From assembly GCA_002269645.1 (NCBI GenBank), contig NIVC01000517.1, positions 373,253 through 437,252 of the forward strand: a stretch of 64,000 nucleotides of DNA, in the 5' to 3' direction. This DNA comes from Macrostomum lignano (lineage: Eukaryota). This document shows, piece by piece, positions 47,126 to 64,000 of this stretch (its first letter is position 1; each line of letters begins with the position of its first letter). A program made the position numbers and the translations under genes. The notes below the pieces were generated by a model. It searched no databases and had not been told where the DNA came from. It worked only from the letters and a program-made list of their open reading frames with translations.

Positions 47126-50100
47126 ATGGCAGTTTTGTGCGAATTTGAGCTGCAAATAATTGGCAAGTTCAATGAAGCGGCAACATCAAAGGGAAGCGAT
47201 GGAGATGGACCTGACTGTCCGGAGAATTCTACATTCTTGGATGAGTTAAGGGTGGAAATTTGCGAAAAGTAAGGAAATCCTTCTTGATTCACTACTTTAA
47301 ATGGAGTAGCGGGACCCGCTCAAGGATCGGGAAGGGTGTCGGGACCCGCTGAAGGATCGGGGAGGGTGTCTGGATCCGCTGAAGGATCGGGGAGGGTGTC
47401 GGGACCCGCTGAAGGATCGGGGAGGGTGTCGGGACCCGTGGAAGGATCGGGGAGGGTGTCGGGATCCGCTGAAGGATCGGGGAGGGTGTCGGGATCCGCT
47501 GAAGGATCGGGGAGGGTGTCGGGACCCGCTGAAGGATCAGGGATGGGTAGCATTGACCCACTGAAGGATCAGGGATGGGTAGCATTGACCCACTGAAGGA
47601 TCAGGGAGGGGGTGGTATTGACCCACTGAAGGATCAGGGTGGGGTAGTATTGATCCACTGACGGATCAGGGTGGGGTAGTATTGATCCACTGACGGATCA
47701 GAGAGGGGGTAGCATTGACCCACTGAAGGATCAGGGAGGGGTAGCATTGATCCACTGACGGATCAAGGAGGGGTAGCATTGACCCACTGAAGGATCAGAG
47801 AGGGGGTAGCATTGACCCACTGAAGGATCAGGGAGGGGGTGGTATTGACCCACTGAAGAATCATGGAGGGGTAGCGGTGACCCACTGAAGAATCATGGAG
47901 GGGTAGCGGTGACCCACTGAAGGATCAGAGAGGGGTTAGCGGTGACCCACTGAAGGATCAGGGGGGGGCAATAGCACCTATTGTAGGAACTCAAAGATTT
48001 GCTCATACAAGTCGCTAATCGATAGTGCAATACCTTAAATTTCCATTATTTGCAGGCACGGCAGTGTAGAGAATTACCTGGACCATCTATTAGACAGCTA
48101 CATCCAGAGCAACTACTTGGGTCCAGTCGCGTCTGAGGCGGCTTCTGACACGCCTGGTTCAGTCAATAAGAAGTGCCAGGCCTACCTTCAGTCAGTCTGC
48201 TCCGAGCCCGTATCTGTCAAGTCGAAGCATTTGCACTTTTTAGCTCTTGGCCAATTTATTGTCGACAGTCTGCTGCTGCCGGCATTTCAACCAATGCATT
48301 GCTTGTATTCGGCTAGGCTAATAAGCTTGCTGCAAGATCTGTTAGAAGATAAAGCTCCGGCTCTTCATAAGCGTCTGATGAGTATCGTTGAGAATGGTGT
48401 TCAATTAGACGGTTAGTTGGTTTCAGTGGTGCAACTTGATCGAATTTATTGCTCTTAGTTCAGCACACATCGAAATTTCCCTGTTGCTAGGGTAGCTCAT
48501 AGCTAAACCGTTAGTTGTTTATTGTGGAGGCTGGCCCGTTGCTAGGCAGTTGTTAAGTAACTGTTCTGTTGCTAGACAGTTGCTAAGGTAGTTTTCCGTT
48601 GCTAGACAGTTACTAAGGTAGCTGTTCCGTTGCTAGACAGTTGCTAAGGTAGTTGTTGCGTTGCCAAACAGTTGCTAAGTTAACTGTTTCGTTGCTAGGC
48701 AGTTACTAAGGTAGCTTTTACGTTGATATGTATTTGTTTCGTTGCTAGGCAGTTACTAAGGAAGCTTTCAGTTACAGTTACAGTTTGTTCCTAAGCTGCT
48801 GATCTATGACTAAACAGTTCGTTGCTAAGGAAGCTGATCCGTTGCTAAGCGTTTTGTTGCTACATAAGCTATCCGGGTTTTGTGTTGTTACCTGGTTTCT
48901 TATGTTGCTAACCCGCTTCTATGCAGCGTCTCATTTCTGTTGCTATGCGAGCTTTCGCTCGTCGCTAATCTAAAATTACTGCTCCATCATGCAGACCCAG
49001 ACGACGATTTGACCAGCTCGCCAGAAGCTGTCGCCAAATTCGAACGCTACTTCGAGCATCAGCTCCTGCTAGCGCAACTCTGCTTAGCCTATTTCGAATC
49101 TCGTCATGCTATTCGAATTGTGACCGAGTGCCAGGCCCGCCTGGGATTGACAGCCAGTCTGAGCGGGGCTGCCGGAGTTCGAACTCGATTTCAGCAGACC
49201 AGTCACGCCCAACTGTACCTGTCTATCGATGCCAGGCATGCCGGACTGCGGGATTATCAAGCTGAGCTGGAGGCCTCTGGATCCCAGCTTCCTAGAGATG
49301 TTGCCCCTACAGATGACACTTTGTTGCCAACAGTGAAATTCTCGGAGACCGATTCGGACGCCGAGTTGGCTAGATTAGCCGCCTCTAATCTGTCGCCAGT
49401 TGAGCAGGTCTGCCTGTTGGCCGCTTCGGACTGTCACAGGCGAAGTCGCGCTTCTGACGGCATTATCGAAGAGGAATTATTGGCCTACGCTAATGCCCTG
49501 TTGATTAGGCCAACTAGTTGGTCTGCGACTGCTGCGGCCTTGCTGCGAAGGAGTCGCATTGAACTGGGACTGCTGGGTGAGCCATTACCTTCGGAATTCA
49601 TCTCGAAGCCTTTAGAGATTCCAATTCCAAAATCCCAATGGGGAGAAATCTCATTTAAAAATCCCAATGGGAAGAAATCTCATTTAAAAATCTCAATTCC
49701 AAAATTCCCATTGTGAGAAATCGCCTTTAAAAATCCCAATTCCAAAATTCCCATTGTAAGAAATCGCCTTTAAAAATCCCAATTCAAATTAATATTGAGA
49801 GAAATCTCATTTAAAAATCCCAATTCCAAAATCCCAAGGGGAGAAATCGCCTTTAAAAATCCCAATTCCAAAATTCCCATTGGGAGAAATCACCTTTAAA
49901 AATCCCAATTCCAAAATTCCCATTGGGAGAAATCACCTTTAAAAATCCCAATTCCAAAATTCCCATTGGGAGAAATCGCCTTTAAAAATCCCAATTCCAA
50001 AATCCCAATGGGGAGAAATCTCATTTAAAAAATCAAAATCCAAAATCCCAATGGGGAGAAATCTCATTTAAAAATATCCCAATTCCAAAATTCCCATTGG

Positions 50101-53100
50101 GAGAAATCGCCTTTAAAAATCCCAATTCCAAAATCCCAATGGGGAGAAATCTCATGTAAAAATCCCAAATCTAAAAACCCCAAAGAAACTATGGAATATA
50201 AAATGAATGTCAACTTAAACTCCGCAGGCGGATCCGGTGGCAGCGGTGGCGCTTCATCTCGCCGTCTGGAGCGCGCCCTGCACCAGCTGGAGGAGCTGTC
50301 CAATCAGCTGGCAAAGCCCGACCCGGAATTCTACCCGTTTAGGCGTAGATTATTTTTTGCTTGCAGCCTGCCGCCAGTCTGGCGACTTCAGCTGGATTTA
50401 GCTGACGCACTGGTAGCTGTTGGAGCCGTGAGCTCAGCCTTGGATATCTATCTGCGCTGGGATAGCTATTCTCAAATTATTGCCTGCTATCAGAAATTGG
50501 ACAAGCCCGCTTTAGCGGAGAAGATTATTAGAGATCGATTGGCTGAGTCTGAGACGCCCGAGCTGTACTGCGCGCTTGCCGAGGTTACAAGGTGAGAAGA
50601 GACGTTTTTTGAGAACGATATGACCGATGCAGGATCAAGGATAGTGTCCAGCGTCAAGAATCTGACATTAAAGTGTTCCCAATCTATTAGGTGCCATTTC
50701 CGATCTTTTAGGTTTCATTTCCGATCCATTATATTAGGATGCCGATTCTGATCTATTAGAGTTCCATTTCCGATCTATTAGGGTGCCATTTCCTATCTAT
50801 TAGGGTGCCATTTCCTATCTATTAGGGTGCCATTTCCGATCTTTTAGGGTGCCATTTCCGATCTATTAAGATGCCATTTTCGATTTATTAGATGCCATTT
50901 CAGTTCTATTAGATGTCTTCCGATTTATTAGGGTGCCATTTCCGATCTATAAGGGACAGGGTGTCAGTTCCGATATATTAGGTGCCATTTCCGATCCAGA
51001 GGTTCCATAGAGACATTGTTACTCACCCCCATGCCACTCCCACTGCCAGAGACTGGAACCACCTGCACACTGCCTGGCGCCTATCCAACGGTCGATGCGC
51101 TCGTGCCGCTCGTTCCCTAGGCTACGTTGCCATGGTAGCCGGGCAATACGCCGAAGCTATGCGCCAGTTCGAGCTGGCACTAGCCGCCAATCACCTGCAG
51201 CCGAAGGCCTGGTTCACCTACGGCTGCTGCTGTTTGCAAGCTGGCGAAATTGAAAAAGCCGAGCTTGCATTCCGCCGCTCCGCTCAACTGGAACCGGACA
51301 ACTACGAGGCCTGGACCAATTTGGGCACCGCTATGGTTCGTCGGGGCAATAAAATTGGCGCCTGTTCGGCGCTCCGCGAAGCGCTCAAATCTAATTGGGA
51401 ACAATGGCGCGTCTGGGATAATTATCTGGCTGTATGCGCCGATACTGGTCAGTTTAATGAGGCCATGCGAGCTTATCATCGATTATTGGAACTGCGGCCC
51501 AAATATTGGGATCCTCACTCTGCCGGGGTGCTCATTCGGGCAGCTTCTTCTGATGAGGAACTGATTGAGGATTCCGCTGCAAGGGAAGACCTGCGCAGGC
51601 GCCTGTTGACTCTGTTTGCTCGGGTGGCTGCGCAGTCCAGCGGCGATGCAGAGTTCTGGTGGCTGTACGCTAAGCTGCTGAGTCTGACTGAAGAGGGAGA
51701 GACAGGTGAGTGACTGGGGGTGACATGTTTTGACATGTGAGAGTCAGGTAGCTGATAGAGTGAGAGTCAGGTAGCTGATAGAGTGAGAGTCAGGTAGCTG
51801 ATAAAGTGAGATTCAGGTAGCTGATAGAGTAAGAGTCAGGTAGCTGATAAAGTGAGAGTCAGGTTGCTGATAGAGTGAGAGTCAGGTAGCTGATAAAGTG
51901 AGAGTCAGGTTGCTGATAGAGTGAGAGTCAGGTTGCTGATCGAGTGAGAGTCAGGTTGCTGATACAGTGAGAGTCAGGTTGCTGATAGAGTGAGAGTCAG
52001 GTTGCTGATAGAGTGAGAGTCAGGTTGCTGATCGAGTGAGAGTCAGGTTGCTGATAGAGTGAGAGTCAGGTTGCTGATACAGTGAGAGTCAGGTTGCTGA
52101 TACAGTGAGAGTCAGGTTGCTGATAGAGTAAGAGTCAGGTAGCTGATAAAGTGAGAGTCAGGTTGCTGATCGAGTGAGAGTCAGGTTGCTGATCGAGTGA
52201 GAGTCAGGTTGCTGATCGAGTGAGAGTCAGGTTGCTGATAGAGTGAGAGTCAGGTTGCTGATACAGTGAGAGTCAGGTTGCTGATAGAGTGAGAGTCAGG
52301 TAGCTAGTGAATGATATGTGAGCTGAGAGTCAGGTAGCTGATAGAGTGAAAGTCAGGTAGCTAGTGAATGAGATGTGAGGAGAGAGTTAGGTAGCGGATA
52401 GAGTGAGAGTCAGGTAGCTGATAGAGTGAGAGTCAGGTAGCTGATAGAGTGAGAGTCAGGTAGTAGAGTGAAAGTCAGGTAGCTGATAGAGTGAGAGTCA
52501 AGTAGCTAGTGAATGAGATGTGAGGTGAGAGTCAGGTAGCTAGTGAATGAGATGTGAGGTGAGAGTCAGGTAGCTAGTGAATGAGATGTGAGGTGAGAGT
52601 CAGGTAGCTAGTGAATGAGATGTGAGGTGAGAGTCAGGTAGCTAGTGAATGAGATGTGAGGTGAGAGTCAGGTAGCTAGTGAATGAGATGTGAGGTGAGA
52701 GTCAGGTAGCTAGTGAATGAGTGAAGTGAGAGTCAGGTAGCTAGTGAATGAGTGAGGTGAGAGTCAGGTAGCTAGTGGGTGAGATGTGAGAGTCAGGTTG
52801 ATCCACCCCATCATCATCAGGCAAGGCCAGTCTGAACGCGGAGTTAAAAGGCCGCATCCTGCAGACGCTGCAGAAGTGCCACCGCTGCGACACTCAACAG
52901 TCAGATTGGTTCAAGTCCTCAGCCGACAATCGAGACAGGGTGCTCAATAGGGCGGCCGATATTGCTCAGAGGTATTTGGATTTTGCCGAAGACTGCCCGC
53001 AGAGTCTGCTGTCGGCCAGGCTGATGCTTACCGGCCTGCTGGCTCGCCGGCTGGAAGATGGGCCGCCCATGCCGCCGCCTCCGGCTGAGCTGATGCAGCG

Positions 53101-53152
53101 TCTGCGAGAGCAACTGGAGTCGATCAATTCGCTGTTGAAGCCGGCGGTTTAA
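47126..53152 (+). CDS. TTC27: Tetratricopeptide repeat protein 27; exons 47126-47268, 48056-48411, 48995-49576, 50228-50591, 51050-51705, 52821-53152
   Basis: IQSNYLGP, LSGAAGVRTRFQQTSHAQL, RRLERALHQL, SARAARSLG-like TPRs, WTNLGT, WRVWDNY, CDTQ. 2433 nt in frame (~810 aa). Confidence 0.9.
47310..47965. repeat. 30-32-bp minisatellites (two CTGAAGGATC-core variants) in TTC27 intron 1
   Basis: Tandem copies; core related to the reverse complement of the TBCB intron 2 monomer. Confidence 0.93.
48480..48900. repeat. Degenerate GTTGCTAG/GTTGCTAAG repeat in TTC27 intron 2
   Basis: Many GTTGCTA motifs at irregular short spacing. Confidence 0.85.
49610..50185. repeat. 43-bp minisatellite (AAAAATCCCAATTCCAAAATTCCCATTGGGAGAAATCACCTTT) in TTC27 intron 3
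   Basis: About 13 copies. Confidence 0.94.
50690..50990. repeat. Degenerate 22-bp repeat (GGGTGCCATTTCCGATCTATTA) in TTC27 intron 4
   Basis: Same monomer as the array at 53.2-54.5 kb. Confidence 0.9.
51735..52800. repeat. 23-bp (GATAGAGTGAGAGTCAGGTAGCT) then 34-bp derivative minisatellite in TTC27 intron 5
   Basis: Tandem copies fill almost the whole intron. Confidence 0.96.
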
Positions 53153-55520: not shown

Positions 55521-55570
55521 CATGATTCACCATTCCAGCCGCTAAGTCCCCATCGTGAACAACCGTAGCC

Positions 55571-56602
55571 ATGGGTCGAGTCCGCACCAAAACTGTGAAG
55601 AAGGCCGCCCGGGTGATCATCGAGAAGTACTACACCAGGCTGGGCAACGATTTCCACATCAACAAGCGCGTCTGCGAAGAGGTCGCCATCATCCCGTCCA
55701 AGGCGTTGCGCAACAAAATTGCCGGCTTCCTCACCCACCTGATGAAGCGAATCCAGCGCGGCCCGGTGCGCGGCATCTCCATCCGTCTGCAGGAGGAGGA
55801 GCGCGAACGGCGGGACAACTACGTGCCCGAGGTGTCCGCTCTCGACGCCGAACAGCTGGAAGTTGATCCTGTCACCAGCCAGATGCTGCGGGCGATGGAG
55901 CTGAGCGTTGAGGTGCTCACTTATTTATGGCATTCACGCTGCCTGCATCTCGCTTTCCTGTGTCTGTTGGTGGCACTCAAGTCTCCCCCTCCCACCGTGT
56001 CACTGTCCACGTCTCGGAAATCCGGGGACTACTTCACCTCTTTCTGCTGTTCTCTTTGTGTCACCTCCCACTTTCCCTCTCTCACTCTCGCTTTCCTCTC
56101 CTCACATTCCTCTCCTCTGCCTCTCCTCTCACTCTCACTCTCCTCTCTCTCACTCTCCCTCTCCCTCTCCTCACCCCCCTCACTCCCTCTCCCTCTCCTC
56201 TCACTCTCCTTTCACTCTCCCTCTCACTCCCTCTTCCTCTCCTCTCACTCTCCATCTCACTCCCTCTCCTCTCACTCTCCCTCTCACTCCCTCTTCCTCT
56301 CCTCTCAATCTCCCTCTCACTCTCCCTCTCCTCTTCCTCTCTTCTCCCTCTCCTCTTTCTCTCCTCTCACTCCCCTCTTCCTCTCCTCTCACTTTCCCTC
56401 TCACTCCCTCTCCCTCTCTTATCCTTCTCTCTCCCTCTATCTTCTCACTCTCCGTCCCCCTCTCACTCTCCCTGTTCTCTCCTTCCCCTCTCCTGTTTTT
56501 TTCCCACTCATCCCACTGATCTAGGAACGTCACTCCTTTGCTCAATTTGGTAATTCATAGTCTAAAATACATTCAAATTTTCAGGTGACTGAAATCCAAT
56601 GA
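55571..56602 (+). CDS. RPS17: 40S ribosomal protein S17 (eS17); exon 55571-55912 plus probable short last exon 56585-56602
   Basis: [21 protein letters not shown]...[28 protein letters not shown]. The last exon is inferred from the TTTCAG acceptor; the donor GAG|GTGCTC is weak. Confidence 0.9.
56060..56520. repeat. CT-rich low-complexity tract in the RPS17 intron
   Basis: Directly visible. Confidence 0.93.
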
Positions 56603-58044: not shown

Positions 58045-58818
58045 TGTTGTGTAATGCAAAATCTCCGGGGGGCGGCTCGTGATCCTCGAGCAGCTACGGC
58101 CTCCTAAGACTAAATACCAGAGTACAAGTACCCCTTCAGGGTGGCGAGCCAGTGATGGCGTCCGACACTCCGACCGAGCTGCCGGTGTCGGGCGGTGCGT
58201 ACTATCGCTTCTCGTTCCTAGCCAGCAGCTCGTCCCTACGGCAGTACCCGATACAGTATGTCCCGTACCGAACAATGAACAACACAACGAGACTCAAGTT
58301 CTTACTGAGGAATGAACACGGCGGGAACGGCGGCGAAGGACTAGCCGGTAACGCGGATTCTCAGACGTTGCGTACCCGTAGGGGCGTCTCGGTTCTAATC
58401 GATATGGGCAGTGGAATCTCAGAGCTGAGTTGGGTTGGAAGGTAGCAGCCACAGTTGGTCCCTCACTGCCGCTACACCGCGCTAAATATATATTTGGGTT
58501 GGCCGGCTAGGCCGCGGGGAATCGCCCACCCGACCAGCCACACAACTAGCTTAGCACATTACAGCGAGAAAGCTGCTGATTGGCCGGTGCGTGAGAGAGG
58601 CGGCCCGTACCAATCAGCAGCTGCGCAAGAGACGGAAAAATTGGGGGGGGACGCGCTGAGAGGGGTGGCGCAGCCAGCCAAAGCCGGCTGGCTCAGACAG
58701 ACTGGGGTGGATGGTGCATACATGTAAACAACTGAGGAGGGAAAGTGCAGTGTCCCAGTGCGCCAATTAACTGCAAGCCTGAGATCGCTAGGCAGTGAAA
58801 GTACACTACGGCACAACA
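58045..58818 (-). repeat. 3' LTR (774 bp) with TGTTGTG...CACAACA termini
   Basis: 7-bp inverted termini. The - strand polypurine tract GGGAGGGGGAGGG (58831-58819) abuts the LTR start. TATA-like AAATATATATTT near 58490. Confidence 0.88.
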
Positions 58819-58967
58819 CCCTCCCCCTCCCAAAAGAGAAGGAAACAAAAATGGAAAAAAAATTACTATAAAGTACCATAGACGAACCATACAAAAGATT
58901 AATAGTGCAAGGACAGTGCAATGGCGAGACGAGCATTTGTAATTGCCTGCTGGCATTTTGCACACAG

Positions 58968-59540
58968 TTAAATATTATAAAATTCACGCGCAGCCGCAGC
59001 CAGTCGACCAGGTAGAGCCCCGTCGCTTCGCTCCTCAGCAAGCCAGGTCGCCGCCTTCCGGACATCAGTCGGCTTACCCGGGTTTCCCGCGAATGGTGCT
59101 GATGATGCAACTAGCAGCCGGTCGGACGGTATCTCTGCGACGCATCGGGCATGCCATCGGCTGTTGGAGACCCGGGCGGTGACTTCAAATTTCAGTCTTG
59201 GCAACGACGCTAGGTACAGGCTGAGGGTGTCTTTGGGCCAGTCGGAAGATTCGACAACTAGAATGCGACAGTTTGCAAAGTCCGACGACACTAGCAACCG
59301 TAAGAACTGGTGCCAGGCCGAGCCACCGGGTTCGACTGGGCTACGTCTACGCTCTCGCAAACGAACCAGGAGGGGTAGATCTTGTTTATTTGCTAGCCCA
59401 ACCTGTAGCTCCAGGGCTGCCATTTGTTGCTCCACACTGATTGCAGTATTCTGGACGTCCAACTCGGCTTCACCGACAGCCACTACCCTTGTCCATTCGC
59501 CCGCTATGAAACGCTGCAGGTCGGCAGCCAGCGTGGTCAT
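58968..59540 (-). CDS. Accessory ORF of the gypsy element, unknown function (~190 aa)
   Basis: Uninterrupted, non-repetitive ORF in element sense orientation just upstream of the PPT (MTTLAADLQRF...); no family recognised. Confidence 0.6.
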   Translation of the reverse strand: MTTLAADLQRFIAGEWTRVVAVGEAELDVQNTAISVEQQMAALELQVGLANKQDLPLLVRLRERRRSPVEPGGSAWHQFLRLLVSSDFANCRILVVESSDWPKDTLSLYLASLPRLKFEVTARVSNSRWHARCVAEIPSDRLLVASSAPFAGNPGKPTDVRKAATWLAEERSDGALPGRLAAAAREFYNI

Positions 59541-59663
59541 GAGCGGTGCCGCTGACGCCCTCAATCCGAGCGCAAAGTGGATCCGAGAGTCACATGAGCC
59601 GGGCAGTTGCGGGGTTTGACGGTCTCAAATAGAACGGTGAATTCACTACCGACACACAGGCTT

Positions 59664-60558
59664 CTACGCGACTACGCCGTCCAGGACAACTGGGGCAACT
59701 AGGGCATCTAGGTCTTCTTGAGGGCATTCTGGGTCGAGGAAATCCGCTTCATCGACGGCCTTCTCTGCCTGGTCTTTGGACTTCGAGTCCGGGGCCACTA
59801 GTACCGTTAGCTCTCGGAGTTTTGACAGGAGTGCCCCGCCGTTCAGCAGGCTCATTTTCTTGATGCATGTCATTACAAATCCGATTGATGCAGTCAGCGC
59901 TTCGTTCGACAGCACTCGAAGGCCCCGCCTAGATGACCCTGGGCGGCGCTTTCGAGGTGACACATCAGACGCTATGAAACTCAGCGCAACCCCTAGAGAA
60001 TCGGAGACCCATCGCCGAGATTCCAGGCCTGCCAAAAGGAACAGTTCTTCCAGTCCTGATATGCATTCCTGCGCCTGAGCGATCCGACCGATCCGCAGAT
60101 GCTGGGCCAGGTGATTCCGGAGGCTTCTGTATCTGACCTCAATCGACTCAGGGACTCTTGGTGGGCCTGATCGCGCGACCATTAAGACTCCACCCGCCGG
60201 CGCAATTGGGGTCGCATCAACGGCGGGAGGTTCGTCTTCATCGTCACTGATGACCACGATCCCCATGCTCTCGAGTCCGGCTCTTATTTCGTCCGGAAAA
60301 CTGACTCCGGGTGGCGGGCTGAAGAACTGCGCGTACGATAGCGTGTTGCTCAGGGCTGCTTAACCGAATTTGTCGTATAGCGCTTTATAAAACGGGTCGC
60401 TCAGGACTGAATACGTGAATACCACCCGTTGGTAGGCCCCTGTGCTTCGACGCCCACCTTGTCGGGGCGAAGTAGTAGTGAGCGCCGACGGAAGGCCACC
60501 TTTATATCTCTCGGTGAAGCTGATTGAGCTACGCCGAGCAGGTCGTACAGATCCGACA
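59664..60558 (-). pseudogene. J-domain (DnaJ-like) accessory ORF of the gypsy element, disrupted by one frameshift and one stop
   Basis: SDLYDLLGVAQSASPRDIKVAFRRRSLLLRPDK (frame 1), then GAYQRVVFTYSVLSDPFYKALYDKFG (frame shifted at ~60444). TAA at 60362-60360 is in frame with the 200-aa ORF 60266..59664. Confidence 0.82.
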
Positions 60559-60829
60559 CTGCAAGGCCAGCGTTCAACTTGCAGGCACCCCAAAAAATGG
60601 AACTTGCTAAACGCATGAAAATACAATTACAACTGTATGAAAATACGAACCCGTACTGTACTCAGCAACTTGGAGGCGCGATGAGAAGGGTGAGAAAATG
60701 CACATCCCAGAGCGATTGATGGACAGATTGGCTCAGATTAATAGAGGATTGGGTCTCCGAATCGACGTGGCGGAATTCCTCGATTCGCACGAACAGGGCG
60801 ACAATTGAAATCCTGCTCGGGAGGAGCGG

Positions 60830-63800
60830 CTACACGAGGCTGATGGTGTGTGATGCGCTGTGCCCAAATGGGCTCTGGGTCCAATTCAGCGTCACTGTTC
60901 TGCTCAGATTCAAAAAACTGGCATTGGGGATAGGAGCTTCCGGGCGGGAATATCGCTCACGTGACCTGGTTCCCGCCGTTGCCTGAGTCCTCCTTTGAGC
61001 AGGAACGTGGGACCTAGAGCTGGCATCGATTTTCCTTAGGTTGTTGAAATGGACTACCCTAGGCCTTCGCGCACCATCGTGCAGGATTCTGTAATTGACA
61101 TCGGAAAACTTTTTTAGGACTTTGGCCGGGCCTTTCCAATAGCGGTGGAACTTCGGGATTTCATTCGGTTTAATCACGGGATCGTATTCTAGAACAAGAT
61201 CACCTTCATTGATCTGAGCGCCACGAGCTTGGCTGTCATAAAGCTTCTTTTGCTTCCTCTGATAGGTTCTGAGATTCTCCCTCACAGCCTCGTGTGCTTG
61301 CTGAAGGTCTTCAGTCAGTCGACGAGTGAACTTGGAGAAACTCTCTGGCACCCTCTCAGTCGGATTCTCAATGTCGATCGGTAGCTGCATTTCCCTACCA
61401 AACAGAATGTAGTGCTAGCCTGTGCCTCTATGCACGCTAGAACGATAGGCTAGCAAACCGGGCGCAATGCAGTCTTCCCAATCCTTGTCCTCCTGCTCTA
61501 ACTGACACGTTAACATGTGCTTTAGAGTCCTATTAAAGCTTTCTGCTTGCCCATCCGCCATCGGATGATACGGAGTGGTTCGACACTTGCGGATGTCTAG
61601 CAGAGAACAAAGGTTCTTCATCAATGCTGACTCAAAGTTTGATCCCTGATCAGTGACTATCTCCTGTGGACAACCGAATGATGAAATCCAGTGCGTGAAG
61701 ATTGCACGGGCTACTGTTTTGGCACGCTGATTTGCTAACGGGATTGCACACGGCCATTTACTGAATGCGTCTTGGATTGTCAAAACAAATCTCGACCCAT
61801 GCTTGGACTTCGGCAAAGGACCAATGATGTCGCACATGATTCTTTGAAACGGAAATGAGCTCGGGATGGGTTGCAGTGGTGCCCTGCCTCTTGCGATGGT
61901 TTGCACTTTGAGCACACTAGACATGTTCGGCAGACTCCTCAACTCTACGAGACAGACCAGGCCACAAAAAGCGTTGCTTAAACTTTCCTTGAGTCTTCTT
62001 AACTCCGAGGTGGCATCCACTGACGCCATCATGAAGGATTTTGGCGGCTTCTTCGAACAGGGAATTTGGTAGGAGGATTCTCTTCTGTGAGTTCTCTGGC
62101 ACTGTCAGGAGCAGTAGCCCATCTTCTAAGACTATTCGAGTCCTATGGGCCCAGATCTCTCTCTCTCTCAACTAAACTACTGATCGGTTCATTTTGCAGC
62201 GCTTCACCTTCCAGTAACTGCCTTACTCGTTTCAGAGCTGGGTCAATTCTCTGAGCCTCTCTGATGCACTTGACGCTGAGAGGTGATGCTAACACAGCGT
62301 TCACTTGTTCAGGTGTTTGTGGCGAACTGTTACAGGAAGGGCACGACTCTTGGGCCCAATGCTTTCGAACTTTACGAGACACTGTCCGCATTCTGGTGAA
62401 AAATTCCTTTCCTGTGAACTATTTCAAACTCAAAACGCTGTAGCGTCTCTAGCCATCGAGCGCACTGTCCTTCCACATCTTTGAGGTTCGTTAACCATGA
62501 CAACGCACTGTGATCTGTTCGGATTTTAAATTTGCGCCCCAAGAGGTAATATTTGTAGGCCTTGACGAAGTGCACGATCGCAAGAAGTTCTAGTCTAGTC
62601 GTACAGTAGTTCTTTTCACACTCTGCCAGGGTCCTTGACCCATAGACAATCTCACTTTTTCGGAGCCGTCGGCTTGCACCTGAGACAGGACAGCTCCAAT
62701 TCCTATTTTGGAACTCGCGTCGGTGTCAAGCACATACTGTCCAGCTGTTTCGGAAAAATCTGGGTAAGCCATCACTCCAGTCGAAATCAGAAGTCTCTTT
62801 AATTCACAGAATGCTCCTTGCTGCTCCCGGCCCACTCGAACTTGGTGTTCTGGCGCAGGAGTTTGTACAGCGGAGCTGCTATGATCGAGAAATCACGGAT
62901 GAAATTTCTGTAATAAGAACAGAGACCAAGGAATGATTGTAGCTCTTTGACACAACTCGGAATAGGCCAATCGCTAATCTCTTTCGTTTTCGCTGGATCT
63001 GTAGCTATTCCTTCCGCTGAAACTACGTGGTCTAAAAACTTTGCCTCTTTGGACAGAAAATGGCACTTCTTTGCTTTCAGACGGATTCCTGCAGCTCGCA
63101 ATCGGTCGAACCGGTCGAACACGTGCTGCAGTCTCTTAAAATGCTCTTCATAGGACTTCGCAAAAACTATAATGTCATCAAAGTACACAAGGCACTCCTT
63201 CCATGACAGGCCAGTCATAACTAGGTTCATGAGCTTTACAAATGTGGCTGGGGCATTTTTCAGCCCAAAACTAACATAGCGCCACGCGAACTGACCGCGG
63301 TTTGGGATGACAAACGCTGTCTTCAACTGGTCTCTACGGTCCAGGGGGCACTGATGGTAGCCTGACGCTAGGTCCAGAGTGGAGAATACAGCGTTTCCTG
63401 ATAGAGCTTCAAGCGTCTCGTCCATCCTAAGTGGAGGGAAAGGATCAGGAACGGTGACGTCATTTAGCCTACTATCAATCTCCTTGTCGATCTCCGGGCG
63501 CAGATGAAGTGGGATGCGCCGCGGGGCTCGCGGGTCGGCTTCGCTGAGCCGGTGTCAATGGTGTGCATTGCTAAATCAGTGGCGCCTAACTCACTGTCAT
63601 CTTTTGCAAAAACGTCTCGATTTCGGCGAATCAATTCAGTGAATGAACCTTGCTGCTCTGGTGTCAAATCTGTTGACTCCCAGCTGCCGAGATTACTGAC
63701 TGGGTCCCAACTGGTGTCAAGGGTAACCAAGTTAGCCTGTGCTGCAGGTTTCACTTCCTGAGCAGGAGGTTGGTTATCGTTTACAGGGGTGAACCAACCA

Positions 63801-64000
63801 ACTTGTCTTCCTCTGGGCAGGGTCACTGGTTCGCCTAAGATGTTGGTTACTTTAATCGGCAAAAATCCTTCAGCTGATGGGATGCCAATGGCTCTGGCCA
63901 ATAACACTAATCCTTCATTCTGATAACGAGTCTCTGTTATTCCTGTGAACTGGAAATTCCGGACACCTTTTCGACTTAATTTGGCCTGAATGATTTGGGA
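60830..64000 (-). pseudogene. Gypsy pol polyprotein (RT, RNase H, integrase with GPY/F-type tail), multiply frameshifted
   Basis: FSTLDLASGYHQ, FGLKNAPATF, YFDD, LDTDAS, RTDHSAL, HxxxxxxHLG, CDIIGP, TDQGSNFES, TTPYHPMADGQAE, WKGP. Confidence 0.95.

Follow-up and report, generated by a model that had tools for sequence, protein, structure and literature searches.

Retroelements are thought to borrow the chaperones of their hosts, and, to our knowledge, the counter-defence proteins that animal retrotransposons encode themselves are poorly known. J-domains are found in viruses, such as the polyomaviruses, whose T antigens carry one, and in cellular proteins such as DNAJC9 and auxilin, in which a J-domain is joined to a client-binding domain; by established chaperone biology, an HPD motif on a J fold predicts recruitment of Hsp70. 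Among retrotransposons, cargo genes of cellular type have been described in bdelloid rotifers, where LTR elements carry a third open reading frame (ORF3) for a GDSL esterase or a DEDDy exonuclease, typically expressed from spliced messages according to the report (PMC5408684).

Here, we describe an ORF3 of a different kind, carried by a clade of Gypsy elements in the flatworm Macrostomum lignano and very probably representing a real gene under selection throughout that clade. As in the rotifers, a captured domain of cellular type takes the env position in Gypsy-like elements of invertebrates and is accompanied by family-specific modules. The rotifer proteins, however, are enzymes with intact catalytic residues, whereas the ORF3 of M. 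lignano consists of a co-chaperone core, an unclassified domain and, in some families, a nuclease fold without most of its ligands; DnaJ, TatD and chaperones go unmentioned in the rotifer report (PMC5408684). The DnaJ proteins of giant viruses and phages likewise belong to mobile genomes and join the J-domain to other modules, but these are DNA viruses, and their matches to ORF3 cover the J-domain only (best E = 1.5e-3), with no match to the helical domain. Class C J-proteins, exemplified by SILENZIO in the available portion of its description, share the N-terminal HPD J-domain followed by a specific domain (PMC8616336), whereas ORF3 is intronless, lies within LTRs and has J-domains that group apart; the one DNAJC9-like exon tested shows no similarity to the helical domain. 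The TatD/YcfH/TATDN nucleases have the TIM barrel and a central Glu in common with ORF3, whose barrel has an incomplete or absent HxH motif, as judged against the accessible part of the nuclease study (PMC10085689), and, unlike the nucleases, is encoded by a retrotransposon as a fusion with the J and helical domains. Finally, heat-induced LTR retrotransposons bearing heat-shock elements share both the host and the heat-shock tie, but that work, as far as it is available to us, concerns promoters; its main text contains no mention of DnaJ, Hsp40, TatD, J-domain or chaperone, and DnaJ occurs in its supplements only in transcript annotation rows (PMC12801592). A perfect heat-shock element was found in none of the LTRs of the 14 elements scanned, not every one of which had both LTRs resolved. 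Cargo ORFs in the env position (PMC5408684) and viral J-domains are already known; of a J-domain or TatD ORF3 in a retrotransposon we found no report in the literature searched, the scope of which did not extend to Repbase, GyDB, subscription journals, figures and an earlier classification of M. lignano elements to which PMC12801592 refers, any of which may mention this ORF.

The element under study lies on the minus strand of a 64,000-nucleotide window (contig NIVC01000517.1, positions 373,253 to 437,252), the coordinates of which are used below. The 3' part of its pol (60738..64000), comprising reverse transcriptase (RT), RNase H and integrase (Pfam RVT_1, E = 1.7e-25; RT_RNaseH, E = 1.2e-22; rve, E = 2e-12; Integrase_p58_C, E = 1e-9), is interrupted by stops and frameshifts, and the 5' end of the element falls outside the contig, which terminates at window position 64000. 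The integrase stop that the initial annotation placed at 60830 is a frameshift product, since the pol-end motif of an intact relative maps to about 60740. A candidate splice acceptor (pyrimidines followed by CAG; 60559..60566), found at the same position in a sister family, abuts ORF3, which spans 60558-58968 and encodes a J-domain, an acidic linker, a helical domain and a TatD-like barrel. The J-domain (60363..60558; PF00226) reads RPD for HPD and is broken by a frameshift near 60445, with the first frame alone matching positions 1-33 of PF00226 (E = 4.2e-7) and the second giving no match. An in-frame stop (60362-60360) precedes the conserved extension of the J-domain, which includes a PPxG motif, and the acidic linker (together 60138..60362). 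These are followed by a helical-bundle domain of ~115 aa with a basic loop (59793..60137), which was delimited by alignment of homologues and stands outside the Pfam families; the frame 60359-59664 (231 codons) has no Pfam match. Comparison with a 94% identical copy uncovered a further lesion (59664..59702), in which 35 nt (59702-59668) replace ~126 different bases and are followed by a stop (59666-59664), the start of the TatD-like barrel being missing at this point. The rest of this TIM barrel, in which substitutions have removed most of the ligands for metal and phosphate, occupies 58968..59624 (218 codons; TatD_DNase, PF01026, E = 2.3e-8) and precedes a polypurine tract (58819..58831) and a 774-bp 3' LTR (58045..58818; TG...CA) with a candidate splice donor (58305-58300) preceded by A. 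The window copy, with three lesions in ORF3, is a dead, decayed Gypsy member. Beside the element, on the plus strand, lie host genes for ribosomal protein S17 (55559-55900; E = 1.6e-59) and, in several exons, a TPR protein (50029-53152), and arrays of minisatellite units 19-44 bp long are numerous between 1566 and 57877 (e.g., a 22-bp array from 53013).

A DNA search of the genome with the window element returned 29 matches. Three of these are 99% identical to it and have flanking genes in common with the window or with each other (RPS17; a 430-codon neighbour), indicating that they and the window copy are versions of one insertion; the LTR pairs of the three full versions are 96.4-97.6% identical. 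One 99% identical version carries the J-domain in a single frame (PF00226 positions 1-63, E = 8.1e-12), which bears out the initial reading of a minus-strand J-domain split over two frames behind a Gypsy pol; the base reported as missing near 60444 corresponds to the break near 60445, which is found in the window only and is absent from the 3 other versions. The RPD motif, the stop at 60362-60360, noted from the outset, and the replaced stretch 59702-59668 are present in all four same-site versions. Two copies that are 94% identical have HPD and encode the J-domain, linker, helical domain and TatD-like barrel in one frame, which a single stop interrupts; HPD is also present in a sister family (A'), 68% identical in DNA to the family of the window (A), whose linker contains one frameshift. 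This arrangement shows ORF3 to be one gene and the RPD of the window to be decay, as had been offered as one of two explanations; the other, a dominant-negative J-like protein, is unsupported for this copy, since its relatives have HPD and a stop interrupts the same frame. Because the helical part continues into TatD in one frame, both in the 94% identical copies and in the 68% identical sister family, the gene comprises ~560 codons, rather than the ~298 aa ending at 59664 that were proposed when the TatD half was overlooked. PF00226 matches natural single-frame copies (L002, L005 and L021), and the region is present in other copies of the element, so that the reading as a one-off insertion of a host DnaJ fragment fails. 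The suggested capture of a J-domain by the element holds on a wider scale than envisaged, being clade-wide, old and under purifying selection, with dN/dS of 0.08-0.13 between families A and A' across the three ORF3 domains.

An ORF with J and helical domains follows pol in at least 8 families (A, A', B, C, D, E, F and G), the family counts being lower bounds from protein searches of a redundant assembly with 1-5 stretches inspected per family; wherever an inspected stretch had an intact helical domain, the ORF lay behind pol sequence. The elements display the features of Ty3/Gypsy, namely, the pol order PR-RT-RNaseH-IN, paired TG..CA LTRs, a primer-binding site, a polypurine tract and gag with a zinc knuckle, and generate a 4-bp target duplication, exact in 7 elements and matching at 3 of 4 bases in a family A element. 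Young, intact members are frequent, with LTR pairs of families B, C, D, E and G being 98.6-100% identical. All families share the J-domain, its 35-aa extension and the ~115-aa helical domain with the basic loop, and the acidic linker is strong in all except B. ORF3 measures 293 aa in C, 315 aa in D, 283 aa in F and 327 aa in G, whereas that of E (328 aa) adds a chromodomain (Chromo, PF00385, E = 1.4e-12), which seems short of one cage aromatic, given what we take to be the cage positions. The TatD-like barrel occurs in A, A' and B; in the last of these, ORF3 (558 aa) combines a J-like domain without HPD with the helical and TatD-like domains, and 10 open frames (571-575 codons) were found among 48 matches. 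By place and frame length, ~60 of the best 150 DnaJ matches in the genome are ORF3 copies, which matters for annotation; 7 of the 16 stretches probed for weaker or unplaced J matches are J exons without a nearby pol and were treated as host genes. Three types of primer-binding site were read after the 5' LTR (L109, L113, L119, L121 and L125): A and B share the first, C and D the second, and E has the third.

Three relatives were found outside the assembly. P0012 and P0013 are full-length proteins with J, acidic and helical parts (E = 2e-60) and P0003 is a TatD-like fragment; their best identities to this genome are 46% (P0012, long matches), 43-45% (P0013) and 51-52% (P0003). Public M. lignano proteins 93-98% identical to ORF3 are mis-joined gene models, in which ORF3 is spliced into unrelated host proteins, and the ORF3 of family E stands in databases as a hypothetical protein. 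A full HMMER scan with the family B ORF3 yielded 9 matches (3 M. lignano gene models, 1 relative and 5 weak TatD/DnaJ matches), a profile search with the helical domain yielded 2, both from M. lignano, and a word-index search with the A' helical and TatD frame yielded none among 8000 candidates. In the ESM Atlas, family C returned J-domain clusters alone, at 0.86, and the helical domain had no usable match, a blank there signifying neither absence nor novelty. The 48 loci recovered by a metagenome scan with P0012 all match in the J-domain only, and a viral scan gave no match.

Families A, A', C, D, E, F and G, as well as P0012 and P0013, exceed the 27.8-bit cut-off of PF00226, and family B scores below it (18.0 bits). 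HPD is kept in seven of the eight families (A, in its 94% identical copies, A', C, D, E, F and G) and in P0012 and P0013; it is lacking in family B as well as in the window copy and the three other versions at its site. HPD is, therefore, the norm, and one young family is naturally without it. In an AlphaFold model of the family G protein, the J-domain with its extension (residues 1-104) and a five-helix domain (212-325) are confident and the linker is disordered; pLDDT exceeds 90 in the J-domain and lies mostly at 85-97 in the helical domain, except for its loop. The J part adopts the four-helix J fold (Z 11.6, rmsd 1.8 Å over 73 residues against J-domains), and the helical domain, queried within the two-domain model, resembles generic bundles (best Z 7.8). 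Foldseek searches with this model ranked J-domains first and, at E 0.001, found no match among PDB entries or viral structures. Pfam matches to the class A/B DnaJ features (G/F region, zinc finger and DnaJ_C) are lacking in all six intact ORF3s, and none of 12 sequences has a 19-residue window above 1.49 on the Kyte-Doolittle scale, as would be expected of a membrane segment.

The model of the family B protein contains a TIM barrel that is closest to TatD (6l25; Z 22.8, rmsd 2.8 Å over 231 residues; Foldseek E = 7e-7), the next non-TatD structure reaching Z 15.5. The alignment underlying this model included one canonical TatD row, and Pfam and phmmer agree on the family without that row, the TatD part of B being below the Pfam cut-off (22.4 bits). 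The TatD active site consists of HxH or (G/A)xN, His, Glu, His, His and an ETD motif, according to the available part of the nuclease study (PMC10085689). Aligned with canonical TatDs, the ORF3 barrels keep only the central Glu throughout; the first His of HxH is kept in A and A' only, and substitutions affect the ETD motif and each of the three remaining His. To judge from these substitutions, the barrel is likely to be catalytically inactive, although TATDN1 remained active after the loss of a single His or Asp in the same study (PMC10085689).

Elements with ORF3 form one group in the RT tree (18 of 25 rows, support 92/96) and in the integrase tree (15 of 22 rows, support 89/92), neither value being starred, and within both trees the TatD-bearing rows group at 100/99; the trees contain rows of this genome only, 7 of them from Gypsy elements without ORF3. 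No J, helical or TatD match was found in the 2.4-3 kb behind pol in any of five non-member Gypsy elements sampled out of 11 selected for comparison. In L138, which is one of the 7 rows without ORF3 and from the same family as one of these five, a remnant of a J-domain lies 2.1 kb behind pol; we tentatively read it as a neighbouring insertion. The ORF3 J-domains fall on one side of a J-domain tree (94/93) against 14 others (10 from this genome and 4 from outside), none of which can be named as the donor. Host TatD genes are present; the two exons tested keep the canonical motifs and are 15-19% identical to family B. We infer that the simplest history involves a single capture of the J and helical domains, with TatD gained later in the ancestor of A and B and the chromodomain in E.

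Selection on ORF3 was estimated by pairwise Nei-Gojobori dN/dS in the natural frames with our own script. Between A and A', the ratio is 0.10 for the J-domain, 0.08 for the helical domain and 0.13 for the TatD-like barrel, at dS of 1.7-2.2, near saturation, and between C and two older relatives it is 0.12-0.17. The value for G versus G' is 0.30 (0.18-0.50), and that within B is 0.32-0.33 (0.17-0.60), against 0.15 for the pol of B; the TatD part of B alone gives 0.46 (0.16-1.31), which is indistinguishable from neutral.

A young subfamily (6 contigs) is without the J and helical domains and retains a 181-codon TatD-like frame; its LTRs are 99.6-99.7% identical in the two resolved cases, and pol is open in stretch L126. 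This deletion argues that ORF3 is not needed in cis and, together with the thriving of family B without HPD, suggests that it is accessory or acts in trans, as counter-defence factors often do. The ORF3 sequences of the window family and the deletion subfamily are 95% identical, and their LTRs have no BLAST match to each other (L125 versus L126 versus L043); likewise, the A' RT is near that of the deletion subfamily (dS 0.11) and the A' integrase is saturated. Such mosaics suggest recombination between families. Among neighbouring elements, a compact Gypsy (L034:5054-9378) with short LTRs and a single 1311-codon frame, used as an outgroup, adjoins the C518 version of the insertion, and long intronless frames near an A' copy (L042:271-8882), one with viral-fibre-like short repeats, leave the mere impression of a possible Polinton-like element.

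Judging from its splice signals, ORF3 may be expressed from a subgenomic mRNA that joins it to the LTR. In D, E and G, the ATG of ORF3 follows immediately on a YAG; the YAG ends 7 nt upstream of the ATG in B and 16 nt upstream in C, with none within 20 nt in F; the background of YAG is ~0.04 per base, and the families are related and hence not independent. In each LTR examined, a GTRAG donor follows the TATA/polyA region, the best donor being preceded by G in B, C, D and E and by A in G. In A and A', ORF3 has no ATG at the start of the J-domain, the acceptor is followed by TG, and the GTAAGA donor common to the three LTR types is preceded by A, so that the joint of donor and acceptor would read as a start codon. 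A public gene model joins the family B LTR, at or near the best donor, to ORF3. Contigs of 4 runs, three of which were taken as RNA by guess, cover parts of ORF3, and no spliced LTR-ORF3 joint was seen in these contigs against the full element of the decayed family A, a blank that does not count as evidence about expression. In supplement 2 of PMC12801592, row 695 is a mildly heat-induced transcript with the sole annotation "DnaJ domain, score 65.2"; the family D J-domain scores 65.3, a likeness that may be coincidence.

Collectively, these features lead us to favour, tentatively, the view that ORF3 is an element-encoded adaptor bringing host Hsp70 to a nuclear nucleoprotein client. It would be an accessory gene that one Gypsy clade has kept for a long time, with the layout of a soluble class C-like J-protein, expressed from a spliced LTR-to-ORF3 mRNA, the joint of which would create the start codon in A and A'. 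Its J-domain, given HPD and the fold, is predicted to engage host Hsp70, and the helical domain, together with an exchangeable module (the chromodomain in E; the probably inactive TatD barrel in A, A' and B), may direct Hsp70 to the client, most likely silenced chromatin at element loci or the cDNA/integration complex of the element. By analogy with other domains, the acidic linker and the basic loop favour a nuclear client, as do the chromodomain and the barrel of nucleic-acid type, and we provisionally rank such a client above both the chaperoning of Gag or RT and a decoy function. Stimulation of Hsp70 cannot be the sole selected role, since family B is young and intact without HPD and below the Pfam cut-off. 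It is conceivable, if rather doubtful, that the clade possesses a modular Hsp70-targeting system, made up of the J-domain, a new helical adaptor and exchangeable readers (the chromodomain or a nuclease-dead TatD barrel), that redirects the chaperone onto chromatin or nucleic-acid defence complexes, i.e., an animal anti-silencing factor, with one branch turned into an HPD-less decoy and another provided with a splice-made start codon.

The alternative that survives best, although we consider it unlikely, is that ORF3 brings Hsp70 to the Gag lattice or RT of its own element in the cytoplasm, thereby assisting assembly, uncoating or RT activation. Auxilin acts with Hsp70 on clathrin uncoating and Hsp40/Hsc70 activate the hepadnaviral polymerase, which provides analogies for such a function. 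The same architecture and selection data fit this possibility, as do the J plus client-domain layout and the co-inheritance with gag-pol, and action in trans would account for the young deletion subfamily. However, a chromodomain and a nuclease-type barrel suit chromatin or DNA better than a capsid, and no such ORF lies ~2.4-3 kb behind pol in the sampled sister Gypsy lineages (0 of 5).

Less probable still is a decoy or inhibitor that competitively blocks silencing or surveillance dependent on host Hsp70 and J-proteins, with the HPD-less protein of family B and the ligand-poor TatD barrel acting as mimics. Family B does keep its 558-aa frame without HPD (dN/dS 0.33), the barrel is conserved though most ligands are gone, and a host J-protein, SILENZIO, works in plant transposon silencing according to the available part of its description (PMC8616336). 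Yet the HPD of seven in eight families points to productive contact with Hsp70, and the interval around the dN/dS of 0.46 for the TatD part of B reaches up to 1.3.

That ORF3 is a neutral passenger, a host DnaJ fragment acquired once and copied without function, is very improbable. The three lesions of the window copy, the lack of a spliced joint in the contigs of the 4 runs and the loss in one subfamily would agree with it, but dN/dS of 0.08-0.17 over saturated distances, open frames in six young families, a conserved novel domain and relatives in other data sets have already largely refuted it. A fusion or membrane protein of env type, which the location between pol and the polypurine tract and the splice acceptor might suggest, can be dismissed almost with certainty, being contradicted by the soluble folds and by the lack of a transmembrane anchor in 12 of 12 sequences.

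As an Hsp70 adaptor, ORF3 would mean that a Gypsy clade carries its own Hsp70 recruiter under selection, a prediction that draws on HPD and the fold. Natural comparisons (families with and without HPD, with a chromodomain, with TatD and with the deletion) are available in a laboratory flatworm amenable to transgenesis. For annotation, the practical consequence is that public models fuse ORF3 to unrelated host proteins.

The genome also contains an uninterrupted frame of 1449 codons (L171:226-4572; assembly G000, C575, and also C3488 twice, C1744 and C1901) whose sole Pfam match is a J-domain with HPD at the N terminus (E = 2.6e-13); it may represent a separate family of J-proteins that is mobile or has expanded. 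Additional ORF3-like matches to P0012 and P0013, all decayed and with 32-45% identity (G000 C543:344398, C2146:128665, C551:362292, C1319 and C2039), probably represent more families.
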